Shown here in pieces: positions 3,611 through 59,930 of a stretch of 64,000 nt of DNA. The notes under the pieces were generated by a model that ran no database searches, was not told the origin of the DNA, and saw only the letters and a program-made list of their open reading frames with translations. Both the position numbers and the translations under genes were made by a program. This DNA is from an archaeon (GTDB lineage: Archaea > Undinarchaeota > Undinarchaeia > Undinarchaeales > JBDRKL01). The stretch spans positions 8,596 to 72,595 of the forward strand of contig JBDRKL010000012.1 in the NCBI GenBank assembly GCA_043814055.1, given 5' to 3'. Positions within the stretch are counted from its first letter, which is position 1, and each line of letters opens with the position of its first letter.

Positions 3611-3828
3611 AAGTCTACGTCTATGCGGGACCAATGTTACATATTCCCGTGCAGACTAAAGCACGGAATGTAAGGCCGGTCATCGGGCATTGGGCTGTCG
3701 GGAGCCGTACCCTCGAGAACCTCTTCACTCCCACCCCAATAGATCTGGGAGTTGTGTCATCAATGAATTGATGATTGTGATTTCGAAGCGTGAGCTTCGA
3801 AAGACACCCAATTATTTGGGTGTGATGT

Positions 3829-4152
3829 TTAGTCAATTACCCGGCGAGCCACATCTTTTATTTTCTTCGCAGTGTCGTCGTGAAGGTCTTTTGCTGCTTT
3901 CGCTGCTTCGACCATTTTAGTAAGGAGCTTGTCTGCATCTGGCGCCTGCATTAGAGTATGAGATGCCAATGCATCGCTCTCTAGAGAGACTGCAGCTGTA
4001 AGTGCAAGATCTGTTCGGTTCAATGCCAAAATAAGGGACTCAAAATGTTCCCCTGCATCTCTGACATCCTTTTCAGATTCTGTAAGATCTTTTTCTACTT
4101 TGATTAGTGCATCTCTAAATGATTCAATTACTCTTTCTATATCTTCAGACAT
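3829..4152 (-). CDS. hypothetical 107-aa helical acidic protein encoded inside the tRNA-Ala/23S spacer
   Basis: Intact ORF on the same strand as the rRNAs. GAGGTGA lies 7 nt upstream of the ATG (rc of 4160-4166) and a CTTTAAAG box lies ~45 nt upstream. No motif recognised. Confidence 0.6.
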   Translation of the reverse strand: MSEDIERVIESFRDALIKVEKDLTESEKDVRDAGEHFESLILALNRTDLALTAAVSLESDALASHTLMQAPDADKLLTKMVEAAKAAKDLHDDTAKKIKDVARRVID

Positions 4153-4249
4153 TTTTATTTCACCTCGTTGATAGAGTTTCCTCTACTTAATTCTTTAAAG
4201 AACACGCCTTGTATCAGAGGGCGTTACTGCATTATGCAGCTTATTTGAC

Positions 4250-4331
4250 TATGATATGTGCCGAGCAAAGCGAGGCACACAAATTTCGCGTTAGCGAAAT
4301 TTCTTTTGGTCAAACTTTTCGTGAAAAGTTT
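4250..4331 (-). repeat. hairpin + TTGACCAAAAGAAA module (copy M1) directly after tRNA-Ala
   Basis: Minus strand: AAACTTTTCacgAAAAGTTT hairpin (4312-4331), TTGACCAAAAGAAA (rc of 4300-4313), then hairpins ATTTCGCtaacGCGAAAT and TGTGCC..GGCACA. Confidence 0.5.
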
Positions 4332-4334
4332 GAA

Positions 4335-8333: not shown

Positions 8334-8460
8334 TGCGGGAGACAGGACTTGAACCTGCGAAGGCACTAAGCCATTGGATGTCTTAATCATCGAGCACTGA
8401 GCTCTCAGCACTCAAGATTTCTCTTGAGTCCAACCCATTTGGCCGCTTTGGTACTCCCGC
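8334..8460 (-). tRNA. tRNA-Leu (anticodon CAA) with 43-nt intron at 37/38 (intron about 8380-8422)
   Basis: Hand fold: GCGGGAG-TA-CCA..TGG-G-TTGGA-CTCAAG|intron|A-TCCAA, a long variable arm TGGCTTAGTGCCTTC, then GCAGG-TTCAAGT-CCTGT-CTCCCGC-A. The intron start AGAAATCTTGAG pairs back onto the anticodon region. Confidence 0.85.
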
Positions 8461-8720
8461 TTAGAGTGATTAATGTAATAACCCCTTAAAATTGCTTTTC
8501 ATATGGATTAGAGACCCATACCACCCCTTCACAAACCACTTCATACCCCAAAATAATGATAATGTAATTCGTTGTGGTAGTTATAGGGGCCATCACAAGG
8601 AAAACCTGGTAGTGGCCGGAGGTTCGCCTCCGGTTGCACTCTTTCTTTTAAATTGCTGTCGCAAGCAGTGATTTAAAAGCGCACACGTTCCGCGAAGCGG
8701 AATGTGTCGTGTTTCAAGAA

Positions 8721-9723: not shown

Positions 9724-9798
9724 TGCCCCAGCCGGGATTCGAACCCGAGTCTCCGCCTTGAAAGGGCGGAATGATTGGCCGGACTACACCACCGGGGC
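9724..9798 (-). tRNA. tRNA-Glu (anticodon UUC)
   Basis: GCCCCGG-TG-GTGTAGTCCGGCCAATCAT-TCCGCC-CTTTCAA-GGCGGA-GAC-TCGGG-TTCGAAT-CCCGG-CTGGGGC-A. No intron and no encoded CCA. Confidence 0.9.
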
Positions 9799-9990
9799 AG
9801 GTTTTTACCAATGTGCACCGAGATACAAAGCTTTTTTCGTCAACGTTTTTGCGAAGCAAAAAGGTTGGACTTCACACCACCGGGGCAACTTTATGTGCGC
9901 CAGGCAATGTACTTTTCTTTTGGTCAAGCTTTTCTTCGTAAAGAAAAGATTGCCGTTGAGTACACCACCGGGGCAACTTTAAGCTATAGG
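9799..9990 (-). repeat. two tandem 88-bp units, each starting with a copy of the tRNA-Glu 5' end (GCCCCGGTGGTGT)
   Basis: The exact 13-mer occurs at 9786-9798 (real tRNA), 9874-9886 and 9962-9974, a spacing of exactly 88 and 88 nt. Each unit has the tRNA 5' fragment, an A/T hairpin, TTGAC(C/G)AAAA, and a ~41-45 nt spacer. Confidence 0.8.
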
Positions 9991-10022: not shown

Positions 10023-10098
10023 TTAGTTCAACTTGCTTGGTAGTTCCGTAGCATCACAAATGTAATGCGGAACCGCGTGTCAACTTCGCGAGAAGTTG
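10023..10098 (+). repeat. R-family two-hairpin element (copy R3)
   Basis: TAGTTCAACTTGCTTGGTAGTTCCGTAGCATCACAAATGTAATGCGGAACCGCGTGTCAACTTcgcgagAAGTTG. It is homologous to 26251-26327, with compensatory stem changes. Confidence 0.6.
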
Positions 10099-10101
10099 TA
10101 A

Positions 10102-10213
10102 TGGGCCCGTCGTGATTCGAACACGAGACCTCACGCTTTCGCAAGCGTGCCCGCATTTTGTGCGGAACACAGCCATATAAGGCGTGCGCTCCACCAGGCT
10201 GAGCTACGGGCCC
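10102..10213 (-). tRNA. tRNA-Ile (anticodon UAU) with 38-nt intron at 37/38 (intron about 10138-10175)
   Basis: GGGCCCG-TA-GCTC-AGCCTGGTG-GAGC-G-CACGC-CTTATA|intron|A-GCGTG-AGGTC-TCGTG-TTCGAAT-CACGA-CGGGCCC-A. The GGGCCCGTAGCTCAG start is typical of archaeal tRNA-Ile. The anticodon TAT reads from 10179-10177. Confidence 0.8.
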
Positions 10214-10349
10214 AAACTTTTATTTAGCCTATGGTTTTGGTTTCCGATGAACTGACCCGATAAGGCCGCAGCATCACCAAAGTGATGCGGCCTAACGCCC
10301 CTCCGCCGCTGTGCGGAGAGCTCCACGGGCCCAAACTTTTATTTAGCCT
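10206..10349 (-). repeat. 25-nt perfect direct repeat (10206-10230 and 10325-10349) bracketing a 94-nt R-family insertion (copy R4, 10231-10324)
   Basis: ACGGGCCCAAACTTTTATTTAGCCT occurs twice. It comprises the last codons and stop of ileS, 6 nt, and the first 8 nt of tRNA-Ile. The intervening sequence holds the hairpins GGCCGCAGCATCACcaaaGTGATGCGGCC and CTCCGCcgctgtGCGGAG. Confidence 0.85.
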
Positions 10350-26250: not shown

Positions 26251-26327
26251 GTAGTTTGACTTGCTTGGCAGTCCCGCAGCATCACAAACTTAACGCGGGA
26301 CAATTTGTCAACTGAATTTGCAGTTGT
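26251..26327 (+). repeat. R-family two-hairpin element (copy R1), abutting the tRNA-Asn 5' end
   Basis: GTAGTTTGACTTGCTTGGCA-GTCCCGC-agcatcacaaacttaac-GCGGGAC-aatttgt-CAACTGaatttgCAGTTG-t. Hairpin 1 is 26271-26301 and hairpin 2 is 26309-26326. Confidence 0.65.
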
Positions 26328-26452
26328 GCCTCTGTAGCTCAGCGGTAGAGCGTCTGGCTGTTATCACAAAGCGCGCTTTGTGAATCATCACGAAGCGCAG
26401 CGAAGTGATGGGTACCAGAAGGTCGCAGGTTCAAATCCTGCCGGAGGCGCCA
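26328..26452 (+). tRNA. tRNA-Asn (anticodon GUU) with 50-nt intron at 37/38 (26364-26413); CCA encoded
   Basis: GCCTCTG-TA-GCTC-AGCGGTA-GAGC-G-TCTGG-CTGTTA|intron|A-CCAGA-AGGTC-GCAGG-TTCAAAT-CCTGC-CGGAGGC-G-CCA. The intron forms two hairpins (TCACAAAGCgcGCTTTGTGA and CATCAC..GTGATG). Confidence 0.88.
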
Positions 26453-26477: not shown

Positions 26478-26556
26478 AGGCAAACAAATAGCTTGGCAGT
26501 CCCGCAGCATAACAAACTTAACGCGGGACAATTTGCCGGCGTAATTTGACGCCGAT
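26478..26556 (+). repeat. R-family two-hairpin element (copy R2), 3' of tRNA-Asn
   Basis: GGCAAACAAATAGCTTGGCA-GTCCCGC-agcataacaaacttaac-GCGGGAC-aatttg-CCGGCGtaatttgaCGCCG. Hairpin 1 is nearly identical to R1, and hairpin 2 has a completely different but still complementary stem. Confidence 0.65.
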
Positions 26557-28877: not shown

Positions 28878-29055
28878 AGCTCAAGAATGGGACGCGGTTT
28901 TAATATAGTTTGCGCAAGAAAAACCTTAAATACGGGGAACAACACTGATAGTCTTACAAATGAAACTAAGTGAGTGTCTTCACAGCTAGAGAAATGATTT
29001 CACTTAGTTTGGATTCTGGAAAATTTTTAAAGAGCTTTAGCTGTAAAATTAAAGC

Positions 29056-29197
29056 AAAAAATGGCCCGGGTAGTTCATTGGCAACCTTTTTCTTTTCACA
29101 AAAGAAAAAGCTCGAACGCGCACAGCGCGTTGAGCAACTCGCTGTCGCGAGTTTGTTTGACCAAAAAGAAAACTTCGGACCGATTTGCGAAAAAAAT
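29056..29197 (+). repeat. 135-bp unit beginning with a 20-nt copy of the tRNA-His start region (pseudo 5' fragment), then a hairpin module (copy M4)
   Basis: AAAAAATGGCCCGGGTAGTT occurs at 29056-29075 and again at 29191-29210, where it is the real tRNA start. After the first copy comes CATTGGCAACC + CTTTTTCTTTTcacAAAAGAAAAAG + two GC hairpins (29110-29135, 29136-29153) + TTGACCAAAAAGAAAA (29157-). Confidence 0.8.
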
Positions 29198-29273
29198 GGC
29201 CCGGGTAGTTTAGTGGTTAGAATTGGAGACTGTGGATCTTCAGACGCGAGTTCAATTCCCGCCCTGGGCCCCA
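29198..29273 (+). tRNA. tRNA-His (anticodon GUG) with genome-encoded G-1, C73 and CCA
   Basis: G(-1)-GCCCGGG-TA-GTTTAGTGGTTAGAAT-T-GGAGA-CTGTGGA-TCTTC-AGAC-GCGAG-TTCAATT-CCCGC-CCTGGGC-C-CCA. One A.C mismatch in the T stem. Confidence 0.85.
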
Positions 29274-29276
29274 TTC

Positions 29277-29360
29277 AACCTTTTTTCCCTTGCGATTGGG
29301 GGAAAAAGCTTGACCAAAAATCAGGGGCGTTCGCTCGCTACGCTTGCGAAGCCCCACTTC
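29277..29360 (+). repeat. hairpin + CTTGACCAAAAA module (copy M5) plus a 32-nt GC hairpin in the hisS leader
   Basis: AACCTTTTTTCCCttgcgattGGGGGAAAAAG-CTTGACCAAAAA (29309-29320), then GGGGCGTTCGC..GCGAAGCCCC (29324-29355). Confidence 0.6.
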
Positions 29361-29378
29361 TTTTTACAGGTGATTTAG

Positions 29379-30668
29379 ATGGATAAATTTGAAGCCACCC
29401 GCGGAATGAGGGATTTCCTTCCAGAGGAGATGGAGAAGAGAAGGTATGTTATTGATATTATTAGGACGACCTTCAAGACCTATGGCTTTGGCGAGATTTG
29501 GACTCCTGCGCTTGAGAGCCTTGGGCTGCTAAGCGCAAAGAGTGGAGGCGGGGACGAGATTGCAAAGACAATATTCACGCTCAAGGACCAAGGAGGAAGG
29601 ATGCTCGGGCTCAAGTTTGACCAGACTGTTCCAACCTCAAGGGTTATCGCGAACAACCCGCAGCTTACAAAGCCATTCAAGCGATTCATAATCAGCCCGG
29701 TTTGGAGGTATGAGAGACCGCAAGCAGGGCGATATAGGGAATTCTGGCAGGCGGATGTGGATATTTTCGGCTCGAAAAACCCAGAGGCAGATGTTGAGAC
29801 TGTTGCGTGCACAGCCGCTGTTCTTACTGCGCTTGAGTTTGAGGAGTATGAGATAATCATAAACAACAGAAAACTGCTCAAGGGGCTTGCGATGCAGTTC
29901 GGATTCAAGGAGAACCAGGTTGTGGACCTGCAGAGGTGCATTGACAAGCTGGACAAGAACAGCGAGGGTGAAGTTGTGCGCGAAGCAGCTGAGAAAGGGC
30001 TTGACGAGGACTTGGTAAGGGACTTTATAGCCACGATAAGCATGGAAGGGAAGCCGGAGGATGTTTTGAAAAAGATAAAGCCAAGTTTGAAAGATACACT
30101 TGCGCTGGAAGGGCTTGGCGAACTAGAGGAGTTTATTTCACTTTCAAAGCCGTATGGCATTTATGAGAAGCTCAAGCTGAACTTGAGCATGGTAAGAGGC
30201 TTGGATTATTACACCGGCACGATTTTTGAGTTCAAGGCAACTGACGCCAAGATTGGCTCGTTTATGGGCGGCGGAAGGTTTGACAAGCTTGTTTCAGCTG
30301 CAGGCGGAGAAGCGATTGCAGCCACCGGGCTTTCAATAGGCGTGGACAGGCTTGTTGAAATTTTGAGAACTAAAGAGAAACTCAAGGCAAGCGGCGGGTG
30401 CAGGGTTCTTGTAGGCTATTTCCCTAACTGCAGGGAGAAAGCAATTGAGATTGCGCAGGGATTGAGGAAGGCTGGGGTTGAAACTGATTTTGACACAAAG
30501 CGCAGGAGCGTTTCAAAAGTTCTGGACTATGCGAACGCGAAGAAGATTCCTTACGTGGTTCTTGTTGGAGAGAAAGAGCTGAAGGAGAACAAGGTTGCGC
30601 TTAAGAATATGGAAACAGGAGAGCAGAAGTTGGTTAAGGAGAGCGAGCTGTTAAAAAGTTTAAAGTAG
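29379..30668 (+). CDS. hisS: histidyl-tRNA synthetase (complete, with anticodon-binding domain)
   Basis: 429 aa with class II motif 2 VWRYERPQAGRYREFWQ, the HisRS motifs RGLDYYTG and GGGRFDKL, motif 3 ATGLSIGVDR, and a C-terminal alpha/beta anticodon-binding domain. AGGTGAT SD. Confidence 0.9.
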   Translation: MDKFEATRGMRDFLPEEMEKRRYVIDIIRTTFKTYGFGEIWTPALESLGLLSAKSGGGDEIAKTIFTLKDQGGRMLGLKFDQTVPTSRVIANNPQLTKPFKRFIISPVWRYERPQAGRYREFWQADVDIFGSKNPEADVETVACTAAVLTALEFEEYEIIINNRKLLKGLAMQFGFKENQVVDLQRCIDKLDKNSEGEVVREAAEKGLDEDLVRDFIATISMEGKPEDVLKKIKPSLKDTLALEGLGELEEFISLSKPYGIYEKLKLNLSMVRGLDYYTGTIFEFKATDAKIGSFMGGGRFDKLVSAAGGEAIAATGLSIGVDRLVEILRTKEKLKASGGCRVLVGYFPNCREKAIEIAQGLRKAGVETDFDTKRRSVSKVLDYANAKKIPYVVLVGEKELKENKVALKNMETGEQKLVKESELLKSLK

Positions 30669-30698
30669 TGGGAAAAACATAGGTAATGATTATGGCAA

Positions 30699-30887
30699 GT
30701 GAGTATCTTCACATGGATATGCAAACTGGACACGAAGTCCCGTCTAGTTATACCTTTTAAGGCGCGGAAAGAGCTTGAGATTTCTGATTCTGTTCTTTTG
30801 AAACTTACAGAAGACGGACTAGTTGTTACAAAATCTAATGGAGAAGAGGGAAGGCCAATTTCTAAGATGTGTAGGAGAGTAGAATGA
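30699..30887 (+). CDS. AbrB/SpoVT-type small DNA-binding protein (GTG start)
   Basis: 62 aa with SRLVIPFKARKELEISDSVLLKLTEDGLVV, matching the swapped-hairpin AbrB-type pattern. It lies between hisS and hisG. Confidence 0.45.
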   Translation: MSIFTWICKLDTKSRLVIPFKARKELEISDSVLLKLTEDGLVVTKSNGEEGRPISKMCRRVE

Positions 30888-30935
30888 AAAATTCAGCAGA
30901 GTGTCTTCATTTTAGGAATACCAAATAAGGGGCGT

Positions 30936-40481: not shown

Positions 40482-40562
40482 GAGCGTTAGCGAAGCTCCG
40501 AATCGCTCTGCGATTCGTTTTTTGGTCAAGCTTTTTTCACAAATATAACCAATAAAAAGGTT
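40482..40562 (-). repeat. hairpin + CTTGACCAAAAA module (copy M6), no downstream gene on its strand
   Basis: Minus strand: AACCTTTTTattggttatatttgtgAAAAAAG-CTTGACCAAAAAAC + GAATCGCagaGCGATTC + GAGCttcgctaacGCTC. Confidence 0.55.
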
Positions 40563-40669
40563 GTCTCAGATCGCCCATCACTCATCACCTTATCAGATCG
40601 ATGTCGGATCTTCATTGACAGCTTATGTTAATAAATAAACTAATATAAATAGTGTTTTAAGTTGCGGTT

Positions 40670-58897: not shown

Positions 58898-58902
58898 TAC
58901 AA

Positions 58903-59012
58903 CCTTTTTCCGCGAAGGCGCGCAAAAAGCTCAAACACACAAAGTGTGTTGAGCAACACGCTGTCGCGTGTTTGCTTGACCAAAAAAATTCGCTTCGCTC
59001 GAAAGGTAGAAT
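58903..59012 (+). repeat. hairpin module (copy M7): CCTTTTT..AAAAAG hairpin, two covarying GC hairpins, then CTTGACCAAAAAAA
   Basis: AACCTTTTTCCGCGAAGGCGCGCAAAAAG + GCTCAAACACACaaaGTGTGTTGAGC (58929-58954) + AACACGCtgtcGCGTGTT (58955-58972) + TGCTTGACCAAAAAAA. TTGACC lies 37 nt before the ATG at 59013. Confidence 0.65.
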
Positions 59013-59930
59013 ATGATAAGAGAAGAACTGCTCAATAAGGTCTCGCAAACCCTGCGCGAGGCAGGCTACGAAGTTGCGCTCCAGTGCACGCCAAGCTGTT
59101 TTGACATACTCGCCCGCAGTGGGCACATTCTGCTCGTGAAAGTTTTGACAAATGTTGACTCGCTCTATGAGGAGCAGGCCGAGGATTTGAAAAGGATTGC
59201 GGATGTTCTGGACGCTTCGCCGCTGCTCGTTGGCGGCACTGCGCGGGGCGAGATGATGAAGGAGAGCACGATGTATGAGAGGCACGGGATTCCTGCTGTT
59301 TCGTTTGACACTTTTGCCGAGACCATAGTTGATAAAAGATTGCCTTTTGTTTACGCGAAGAAGGGCGGGTTCTACGCGCACATCAACGCGGACTTTTTGA
59401 AGAAGTTGCGGGAGAAGAAAGACCTTTCTTTGAATGATTTGGCGCGGGAAGCCGGGGTTTCAAAAGCAACGATTCAGAATTATGAGAAGGGTGAGGGCGC
59501 TGAGGTTGACAATATCTTCCGCCTGCAGGAAGCGCTGGGCGACTTGGTTCTGGATCCCATTGACTTATTTGACTTTGAGGAGAAACCTATAGAGGTTCAG
59601 CCGCGGACTGTCTACGAGCGCGAAATTCACGCGCAGCTTGGCGATATAGGTTTTAAAACAACTGCGGTTACAAAGGCGGCGTTTAGCATTGTTGGAAAGC
59701 ACAAGGATGATATTCTGCTCACTGGCTTGAGGAAGGAGTCAATTGAGAAAAAAGCGCAGGACATCCACGGGGCTTCAATGGCGCTTGAGCAGCACGGGAT
59801 GTTCGTTGTGAACAAGGCGGTGCAGAAAAGCGTTTCAGGAGTTCCTGTTCTTGAAAGGAAAGAGCTTGACAAGGTTGTTACATCAAGGGAATTACTTAAA
59901 ATACTGAAAGAACTAGAGGAGGAACAATGA
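59013..59930 (+). CDS. putative HTH (cro/C1-type) transcriptional regulator, COG1395-like
   Basis: 305 aa with a central HTH, KDLSLNDLAREAGVSKATIQNYEKG. The architecture is typical of the conserved archaeal regulator family. Confidence 0.6.
   Translation: MIREELLNKVSQTLREAGYEVALQCTPSCFDILARSGHILLVKVLTNVDSLYEEQAEDLKRIADVLDASPLLVGGTARGEMMKESTMYERHGIPAVSFDTFAETIVDKRLPFVYAKKGGFYAHINADFLKKLREKKDLSLNDLAREAGVSKATIQNYEKGEGAEVDNIFRLQEALGDLVLDPIDLFDFEEKPIEVQPRTVYEREIHAQLGDIGFKTTAVTKAAFSIVGKHKDDILLTGLRKESIEKKAQDIHGASMALEQHGMFVVNKAVQKSVSGVPVLERKELDKVVTSRELLKILKELEEEQ

Follow-up and report, generated by a model that had tools for sequence, protein, structure and literature searches.

Short non-coding hairpins that recur between the genes of an archaeal genome may be read either as transcription signals or as copies of an element that has inserted there. 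This question is raised by a cassette that occurs seven times within 64,000 nucleotides (nt) of contig JBDRKL010000012.1 from an archaeon of the order Undinarchaeales (positions 8,596 to 72,595, assembly GCA_043814055.1); this whole stretch is designated the window in the following. The initial annotation had described the cassette as a portable insulator composed of a terminator and a promoter at a fixed distance from the downstream start. The analysis summarized here leads us to conclude that the cassettes probably represent a non-autonomous, insertional family of palindromic DNA repeats, of the kind of MITEs (miniature inverted-repeat transposable elements) or repetitive extragenic palindromic (REP) sequences, which is widespread in uncultivated archaea. 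A full-text search of the literature revealed no description of this repeat family, and we regard it as a newly defined repeat variant of the MITE/REP kind.

Structure of the cassettes

All seven copies that had been reported are present in the window, with boundaries that were either right or at most 3 nt off; the corrected positions are 4303-4332(-), 9833-9867(-), 9917-9952(-), 29082-29167(+), 29276-29320(+), 40519-40563(-), and 58900-58988(+). A relaxed scan of the 64 kb yielded no copy beyond these seven. The composite pattern CTTTT-N2-32-AAARBTTGACSAAAA has four matches in the window and none in any of 100 dinucleotide shuffles (100/100), and AAAGCTTGACCAAAA with up to three mismatches has 13 matches, compared to 4.8 expected. 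A chance origin of the motif is ruled out by these shuffle controls.

The T-run was correctly proposed to pair with AAAAAG across a variable loop, but the stem is longer than had been assumed, since the flanking CAA and TTG also pair (CAAsCTTTTT...AAAAAGsTTG). With a single conserved internal mismatch, the hairpin of the unit is near-perfect and reads CAAsCTTTT(T)–variable top–(A)AAAAGsTTG; ACCAAAA(A/G) follows it, and the core is non-coding and 27-57 nt long. The two long copies, 29082-29167 and 58900-58988, share 86% identity across 63 nt, contain two additional hairpins between AAAAAG and TTGACC, and differ from each other in a compensatory manner (ACACAC/GTGTGT vs. ACGCGC/GCGCGT and ACGC/GCGT vs. 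TCGC/GCGA). As RNA, the cassettes fold far better than shuffled sequences (z = -3.65 for the focal long copy at 58900-58988 and z = -4.95 for the tail of the copy next to tRNA-Ala). A known RNA family was considered as their identity and rejected: Rfam 15 assigned no family to the cassettes at gathering score, and in the window as well as 20 archaeal loci only the rRNA and tRNA families were recovered.

Empty sites in related genomes

That the cassette is portable, as the initial annotation had it, is borne out by its presence or absence at three orthologous sites and by the occurrence of the same core at many places in other archaea. Loci from other genomes are given below by L numbers; the best identities found elsewhere were at most 64% for the histidyl-tRNA synthetase (HisRS) and at most 74% for the fibrillarin of the window. 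The closest relative reached, L131, is fully syntenic around the fibrillarin gene, with 74% identity in fibrillarin and 75% in the downstream protein with helix-turn-helix (HTH) and PDDEXK domains. In L131, the two genes are joined as TGAaATG with a gap of 1 nt (...GAGTGAaATGCTC...), whereas in the window an insert of 115 nt (58898-59012, +) extends from the fibrillarin stop to the start of the HTH/PDDEXK gene. It contains the focal long-form cassette (58900-58988, +), which is composed of hairpin 1 (CAACCTTTTTCCGCG-aagg-CGCGCAAAAAG), hairpin 2 (GCTCAAACACAC-aaa-GTGTGTTGAGC), and hairpin 3 (CAACACGC-tgtc-GCGTGTTTG), followed by CTTGACC and seven A residues. The insert may be flanked by a direct repeat, AGAAATGATA / AGAATATGATA, possibly a short duplication of the overlapping stop and start codons.

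The second site is the spacer between tRNA-His and hisS, which in the window harbors a short cassette (29276-29320, +) located 2 nt past the tRNA-His 3' end; between this cassette and hisS lies a GC hairpin (29324-29357). No cassette was found in this spacer in five related lineages (L121/L122, L123-L125, L126, L127, and L128/L129), in which hisS starts 25-45 nt past tRNA-His and is preceded by a Shine-Dalgarno sequence. The third site lies upstream of tRNA-His, where a long-form cassette (29082-29167, +) separates the real gene from a pseudo-start, GCAAAAAATGGCCCGGGTAGTT (29054-29075, +), which is the left copy of a target duplication of about 22 nt with the right copy at the real tRNA-His (29187-29210). 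This module of pseudo-start and cassette is present in L123-L125 and absent from L121, the HisRS proteins of these lineages being 90% identical, and it is also absent from L126 and L128. The orthologous copies in L123/L125 are of the short form and have GGCGGCG instead of TTGACC; L125 has exactly the inner hairpin CTTTTTCTTTTCACAAAAGAAAAA and the tail AAAAAGAAAACTTCGG of the window, and its closing stem has changed in a compensatory manner from CAAC/GTTG to CGCC/GGCG. Copy density likewise differs, with seven copies in the 64 kb of the window, none in the 20.6 kb of L131, and, in about 55 kb of loci from the hisS relatives, only the one in L123/L125.

The family outside the window

The family was sampled by exact-match patterns in two scans, with at least 120 loci per scan. 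A pattern scan with one genome per species found the core in at least 120 loci, and a metagenome scan with the archaeal form also gave at least 120, mostly from groundwater and sediment. Deduplication left at least 145 archaeal copies from metagenome-assembled genomes (MAGs, mostly of DPANN type) and metagenomes. The archaeal carriers among the matches listed include MAGs of Woesearchaeota, Micrarchaeota, and Parvarchaeota, MAGs labelled Methanosarcinales, and one MAG of the Thermoproteota, and the form of this class is that of the window, CAACCTTTT(T)–loop–AAAAGCTTGACCAAAA. A second, bacterial class among the matches listed is a REP-like multi-copy repeat with the core CAAGCTTTTGAAAAAGCTTGACCAAAACTTT, which occurs in Oscillospiraceae, Acutalibacteraceae, Ruminococcus, and one Anaerolineae MAG. 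The bacterial core (e.g., at L012 2969-2991 and L066 2700-2722) is identical at 26 of 27 positions to the shortest archaeal cassette, and the bacterial repeat is preceded by GC-rich hairpins that also end in CTTGACC. An association with viruses was rejected, because a single match was found in the 2.9 million viral contigs of IMG/VR.

Across the family, the left end is sharply defined as CAACC. The A/T-based hairpin that comes next is hypervariable at its top, and it is followed by the conserved GCTTGACCAAAA and a right part that is variable and rich in hairpins. What CAACC directly abuts may be a stop codon, an opposite-strand start codon, the 3' end of a tRNA, or, in copies within tRNA introns, the end of the 5' exon. 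The arms CAACCTTTT/AAAAGCTTG form the inverted repeats of the core, and some entire inserts end in AAAGGT(T)G, but the right boundary is generally not conserved. The right arm is extended in 13 of the 145 copies, which form a subfamily: GCTTGAC pairs with a downstream GTCAAGC, followed by a hairpin with the loop CATAAAG and a covarying stem. The tRNA-Ala copy of the window matches this arm (TTTGAC...GTCAAA and a CUGC-AUAAU-GCAG hairpin), with a compensatory swap to TTTGAC/GTCAAA where other copies have CTTGAC/GTCAAG.

The orientation of the copies relative to the longest flanking open reading frames (ORFs), although such ORF-based calls are crude, is near random, with 20 (+,+), 29 (-,-), 14 (-,+), and 13 (+,-) cases, and a role as directional insulator was rejected for this reason. 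In 12 copies, an ATG on the reverse strand lies 0-7 nt from CAACC, and for such opposite-strand starts a Shine-Dalgarno-like sequence may be provided by the reverse complement, ...AAAAGGTTG. A leftward leaderless promoter was also considered, with the reverse T-run located 25-30 nt from the ATG in 11 of 17 cases, and discarded; these cases belong mostly to one subfamily of 36 nt, and the proposal is not applicable to the copies of the window.

Association with tRNA genes and flanking duplications

According to ARAGORN, which misses non-canonical introns, 38 of the 145 archaeal copies lie in a tRNA gene or at most 150 nt away from one, compared to about 3% expected from tRNA density, an approximately 8-fold enrichment; 12 of these 38 are located inside the tRNA gene, whereas all seven window copies are intergenic (0/7 inside a tRNA). 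None of 86 bacterial copies is near a tRNA. Intron-like inserts were found in the anticodon loop (L033, L041, L035, and L055), the T-loop (L010 and L063), and the D-loop (L114), and in L033 and L041 the Rfam tRNA model spans the insert. Copies directly past tRNA 3' ends occur in L088 and L112. Relative to the nearest tRNA, 25 copies have the opposite and 13 the same orientation. In L041 (5245-5370), a tRNA-Gln-like gene has an anticodon-loop insert with a cassette whose T9 run would be long enough for a strong archaeal terminator inside the tRNA gene.

The flanks of the copies were examined for direct repeats by comparing the 35 nt that precede CAACC with the 250 nt that follow ACCAAAA. Exact repeats of at least 11 nt, the longest measuring 45 nt, flank 31 of 110 testable copies (about 28%), in comparison to 9 of 110 in the control. 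The left repeat copy reaches CAACC and is often more diverged close to the junction, while the right copy follows 0-130 nt past the core. What is duplicated may be a leader together with the initial 9-31 nt of its tRNA, the final 16-20 nt of a tRNA on the other strand along with the trailer, or the beginning or 5' untranslated region (5' UTR) of a protein gene. Tandem arrays were observed in L104, L161, L168, L184, and L247. A 14-codon ORF, MDENGMSNVVSLKV, is found on both sides of the cassette in L039 (3520-3640); the two copies differ by synonymous changes, which suggests that both copies of this presumptive leader peptide have been maintained.

The pseudo-starts of tRNA-Glu and tRNA-His in the window have the same architecture as the flanking duplications of the family, and they can be explained by an insertion or amplification that duplicated the tRNA start (its first 13-25 nt) together with the leader. 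Upstream of tRNA-Glu, which starts at 9798, the duplicated target segments are two pseudo-starts, TAAAGTTGCCCCGGTGGTGT, at 9962-9981 and 9874-9893 (entire region 9874-9981, -), with the cassette of tandem unit 1 between them. This cassette (CAATCTTTTCTT-tacg-AAGAAAAGCTTGACCAAAAG, 9917-9952, -) and that of unit 2 (CAACCTTTTTGC-ttc-GCAAAAACGTTGACGAAAAA, 9833-9867, -) recur with a period of 88 nt. The same tRNA-Glu fragment with the linker GTGTACTCAACGGCAATCTTTT is present in L104, and there the sequence directly upstream of the real tRNA-Glu, with its TATA-like A/T-rich runs, recurs between each cassette and the next tRNA-Glu start.

Proposed mode of spread

In the model that we favor, the cassette inserts beside tRNA and other genes, and the copies of this genome have been inserted in a lineage-specific manner at junctions that were formerly tight; the insertion or an amplification often duplicates 11-45 nt of the target, and the resulting units can then amplify in tandem. 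The hairpin would act as DNA: as single-stranded DNA or a cruciform, it would be recognized by an enzyme supplied in trans, or, as a palindrome that stalls replication, it would provoke template switching. Candidate mobilizers would be a trans-acting HUH-type hairpin enzyme, an IS1634-like transposase, or template switching induced by the palindrome itself. IS1634-like transposases generate long, variable duplications. A count of isolated mismatches over 116 distinct hairpins, each of which has 5-12 Watson-Crick pairs, gave 12, among them one G.T and five A.C. Near-absent wobble pairs together with mixed orientation favor a palindrome that would act at the DNA rather than the RNA level, though the counts are small; a strand-specific RNA structure was set aside, the G.T and A.C counts (1 vs. 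5) being too small for either strand.

Several observations weigh against this interpretation. The sample of the family is biased, as it was obtained by exact-match patterns. Two lineages whose HisRS are only 64% identical agree in all of the inner 24 nt of the tRNA-His cassette, which implies either strong constraint, and hence function, or horizontal spread. The flanking duplications vary in length from about 9 to 45 nt and thus define no fixed target-site length, and a defined left end, a variable right end, and long, variable duplications make the family a poor fit to a standard DDE-type MITE. All-against-all clustering of the 804 ORFs within 2.5 kb of copies revealed no recurrent family of transposases, integrases, or other proteins, the largest cluster covering seven loci, and no pair of ends bracketing an ORF at consistent spacing was found in the DNA sampled. 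A linked transposase or integrase and an autonomous element bracketed by both ends were accordingly rejected as candidates.

Promoter, terminator, and other interpretations

The alternative put forward initially, an evolved terminator-plus-promoter insulator in which the T-run hairpin stops transcription and TTGACC, as B recognition element (BRE), and the A-run, as TATA box, restart it about 26 nt further on, appears unlikely to us. Its starting point is sound: the distances measured from TTGACC are correct, namely 37 nt (58976 to 59013), 69 nt (29310 to 29379), 41 nt (29157 to 29198), 41 nt (9927 to 9886), and 45 nt (9843 to 9798), and all seven window copies are co-oriented with the local genes, five of them having a start 37-69 nt downstream. 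In addition, T5-6 runs have been placed into the fibrillarin and tRNA-His-hisS operons, so that read-through or a new promoter would be needed, and the A-rich tail AAAAAGAAAACTTCGG, which is kept in a lineage with 64% HisRS identity, lies at about -35 to -22 before tRNA-His. The tails ACCAAA, GCGAAA, and ACGAAA also bear what we take to be a loose resemblance to purine-rich BRE elements. However, the narrow spacing of 37-45 nt is confined to the window, where the units are partly paralogous; the values of 41, 41, and 45 nt are not independent, because the tRNA-Glu units form an 88-nt tandem repeat. Among the 120 family copies with enough downstream DNA, 27 have the next gene starting on the same strand, and for these the distance from TTGACC to that start is spread flat between 10 and 304 nt, and a fixed promoter spacing was rejected; in copies within introns, the 3' exon follows after anything between 15 and more than 110 nt. 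In co-directional gene pairs, 29 copies are antisense and 20 sense. The tail ACCAAAAA(G) contains no TATA-type box and no T/A alternation, unlike the clear promoters of the window, which are of the TTTATATA/TTTAAAT type with an A-rich upstream element. Furthermore, TTGACC has been lost from the orthologous L125 copy, and the array in L104 repeats the genuine upstream sequence of tRNA-Glu behind each cassette. A dedicated promoter and a fixed spacing are thus not supported. The part of the proposal that concerns termination fares better: T5-T6 runs occur in five of the window copies and T4 runs in the other two, tRNA-Ala, tRNA-His, a C/D-box small RNA (sRNA), and the fibrillarin stop codon are each followed after 2-3 nt by a T4-6 run, and the palindrome provides T-runs on both strands, so that a function of the cassettes as bidirectional archaeal oligo-T terminators is plausible judging from their sequence. 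The genes past the inserts (the HTH/PDDEXK gene, hisS, tRNA-His, and tRNA-Glu) would then be expressed by read-through or weak cryptic initiation.

Two further explanations start from the tRNA genes. The cassette might be an RNA-level element, i.e., an intron module of bulge-helix-bulge (BHB) type or a processing signal that is spliced out, circularized, re-inserted, and copied into DNA. The hairpin with ACCA resembles a tRNA acceptor minihelix; in anticodon-loop introns, CAACC is located 0-2 nt past position 37/38, whereas D- and T-loop introns have it at the break point and intergenic copies 2-3 nt past mature RNA 3' ends; T-loop introns open with CAACCTTT and finish with AAAGGTTG, by which the intron is closed; and the duplicated tRNA starts include a leader of 7-13 nt and begin about 25-29 nt past the TATA box, as a primary transcript would. 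Related introns at different tRNA positions were reportedly described for Thermoproteales by Fujishima and colleagues in 2010, which also speaks for this route. Against it, G.U wobble pairs are nearly absent from the stems, A.C being if anything commoner, the orientation towards tRNAs is mixed, no reverse transcriptase was seen among the ORFs within 2.5 kb of any copy, and the bacterial family with the same core lacks the link to tRNAs; on balance we consider an RNA route improbable. Very unlikely in our opinion is the idea that the structures are scars of integrase-mediated integration into tRNA genes, the partial tRNAs being attL and attR of plasmids or viruses that were later deleted. Integrases prefer positions in the anticodon loop and the T-loop, and the partial tRNA copies flanking cassettes do have their break points there; moreover, the half-tRNA-Arg flanking the L084 copy has diverged from the intact gene, as a displaced att copy would. 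Yet the DNA between the repeats is invariably as short as 30-170 nt, protein-gene starts and a junction of 1 nt between genes show the same structure, many copies lack a duplication, no recurring integrase is found nearby, and the viral contigs contain just the one match mentioned above. An insertional DNA repeat thus remains the interpretation that we prefer.

Further copies and neighboring features of the window

The RNA genes of the window comprise 16S rRNA, tRNA-Ala, and 23S rRNA on the minus strand as well as tRNA-Glu, tRNA-His, and three intron-containing tRNAs. A short cassette, CAAACTTTTC-ac-GAAAAGTTTGACCAAAAG (4303-4332, -), is situated 2 nt past tRNA-Ala in the spacer towards 23S rRNA. 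Its structured tail (4195-4302, -) consists of two hairpins, a GTCAAA complementary to TTTGAC, and then the hairpin CUGCAUAAUGCAG, and resembles the extended right arm of the 13 family copies (...GTCAAGCTTGAAG-GGGGCATAAAGCCCC). The tRNA-Ala–23S spacer (3617-4333) is 717 nt long and contains an ORF of 107 amino acids (3829-4152, -) without a Pfam match that is preceded by a TATA-like box and a Shine-Dalgarno sequence of its own; 16S-tRNA-Ala and 23S rRNA may therefore be separate transcription units.

For the copy at 40519-40563(-), a short cassette with a 16-nt loop, the initial annotation had noted that no gene follows on the same strand. It does, however, have a partner upstream, since it directly follows a C/D-box sRNA (40564-40619, -), and it is located between convergent transcription units, with a PAP2 gene on the opposite strand. 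The sRNA has the boxes C (AUGAAGA), D' (CUGA), C' (UGAUGA), and D (CUGA) and two 12-nt guides; it matches 11 archaeal C/D families over its full length, though below threshold (best E = 7e-5).

Several other features of the window also concern tRNA genes. An additional intron-containing tRNA (8334-8460, -) scores 41.9 bits, above the Rfam gathering score, and was missed by the whole-window Rfam scan and by ARAGORN. Upstream of the intron-containing tRNA at 10102-10213(-), a 28-nt pseudo-start, taaataaaagtttGGGCCCGTgGAGCTC, is duplicated (10300-10345, -), its copies being separated by a hairpin-rich insert without a CAACC/T-run cassette; duplication of tRNA starts therefore seems to be a broader habit of this genome. 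A second, hairpin-bearing repeat family, GCTTGGCAGTCCCGCAGCATCACAAACTTAACGCGGGAC... (10035-10092, 10266-10290, 26263-26320, and 26491-26548), flanks two intron-containing tRNAs on both sides in varying orientation to the tRNA. Small hairpins based on CAAC...GTTG without T/A runs abut tRNA ends at 26309-26326(+) and 10081-10098(-), with a CAACTGAATTTGCAGTTG hairpin 1 nt ahead of the tRNA at 26328 and CAACTTCTCGCGAAGTTG-ACAC 3 nt past the tRNA at 10102. Finally, the motif (G)AGTGTCTTCAC / GATTGCCTTCAC is present upstream of tRNA-His-hisS and before the his operon (at about 28966-28985, 30696-30712, and 30893-30908) and is kept at the same place in relatives (L121 9700-9720, L126 2200-2215, and L128 9820-9835); it may be a regulatory site of the histidine pathway.

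Relation to known systems and implications

The family shares with MITEs that its members are short, non-coding, and multi-copy, have inverted-repeat arms, lie between genes, show insertion polymorphism, and are accompanied by target duplications. It differs from them in that conservation is limited to the left end and the core, the duplications measure about 9-45 nt rather than a fixed few base pairs, no autonomous partner was found in the DNA sampled, and the cassettes are strongly biased to tRNA genes and introns. High densities of MITEs in a Woesearchaeal genome have been mentioned without detail (PMC11602168). The cassettes are equally reminiscent of REP sequences and bacterial interspersed mosaic elements (BIMEs), which are mobilized by HUH enzymes of the RAYT/IS200-IS605 type: both are imperfect palindromes of 20-40 nt with a conserved flanking motif at gene ends and in operons, and the REP-like family of Oscillospiraceae and Anaerolineae has nearly the same 27-nt core. 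REPs and BIMEs terminate transcription or stabilize transcripts. In contrast to the cassettes, REPs lack target duplications and a link to tRNAs or introns, and no RAYT-like gene was seen near the archaeal copies.

The BHB-type tRNA introns of the Thermoproteales resemble the cassettes as one conserved sequence found at the D-, anticodon-, and T-loops of different tRNAs, but the cassettes lie mostly outside tRNAs, in either orientation, and also beside protein genes. Duplications at att sites have in common with them the partial tRNA copies that flank the insert and the break points in tRNA loops, whereas the cassette insert is only tens of nt long and lacks an integrase, 5' fragments with a leader are common, and protein-gene starts are affected as well. 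As in archaeal oligo-T terminators, at least 4-6 T residues follow RNA genes and a stop codon directly, on both strands; the conserved GCTTGACC of the cassette is, however, not needed for termination. From BRE/TATA promoters, the cassettes are distinguished by the absence of a TATA-type box and of fixed spacing and by their random orientation in the family.

For annotators, these results mean that such motifs are to be regarded as insertions and not as core promoters, and pseudo-tRNA starts are explained as target duplications. The core that is nearly identical in a bacterial REP-like repeat raises the question of a shared recognition machinery, and the copies in formerly tight operon junctions constitute natural experiments on the tolerance of archaeal transcription units for oligo-T hairpins. 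The occurrence of the repeat in introns of all three tRNA loops offers a testable source for the gain of tRNA introns and the disruption of tRNA genes in archaea. We mention as a speculation, to which we attach a low probability, that the cassette is an insertion sequence that seeks gene boundaries and tRNA loops and creates archaeal tRNA introns, and that its T-runs could split tRNA genes into separately transcribed halves. If true, the cassette-bearing tRNA genes would represent a living intermediate towards the split tRNA genes of the Nanoarchaeota, and the mobilizing enzyme may be common to the archaeal family and the near-identical bacterial repeat.

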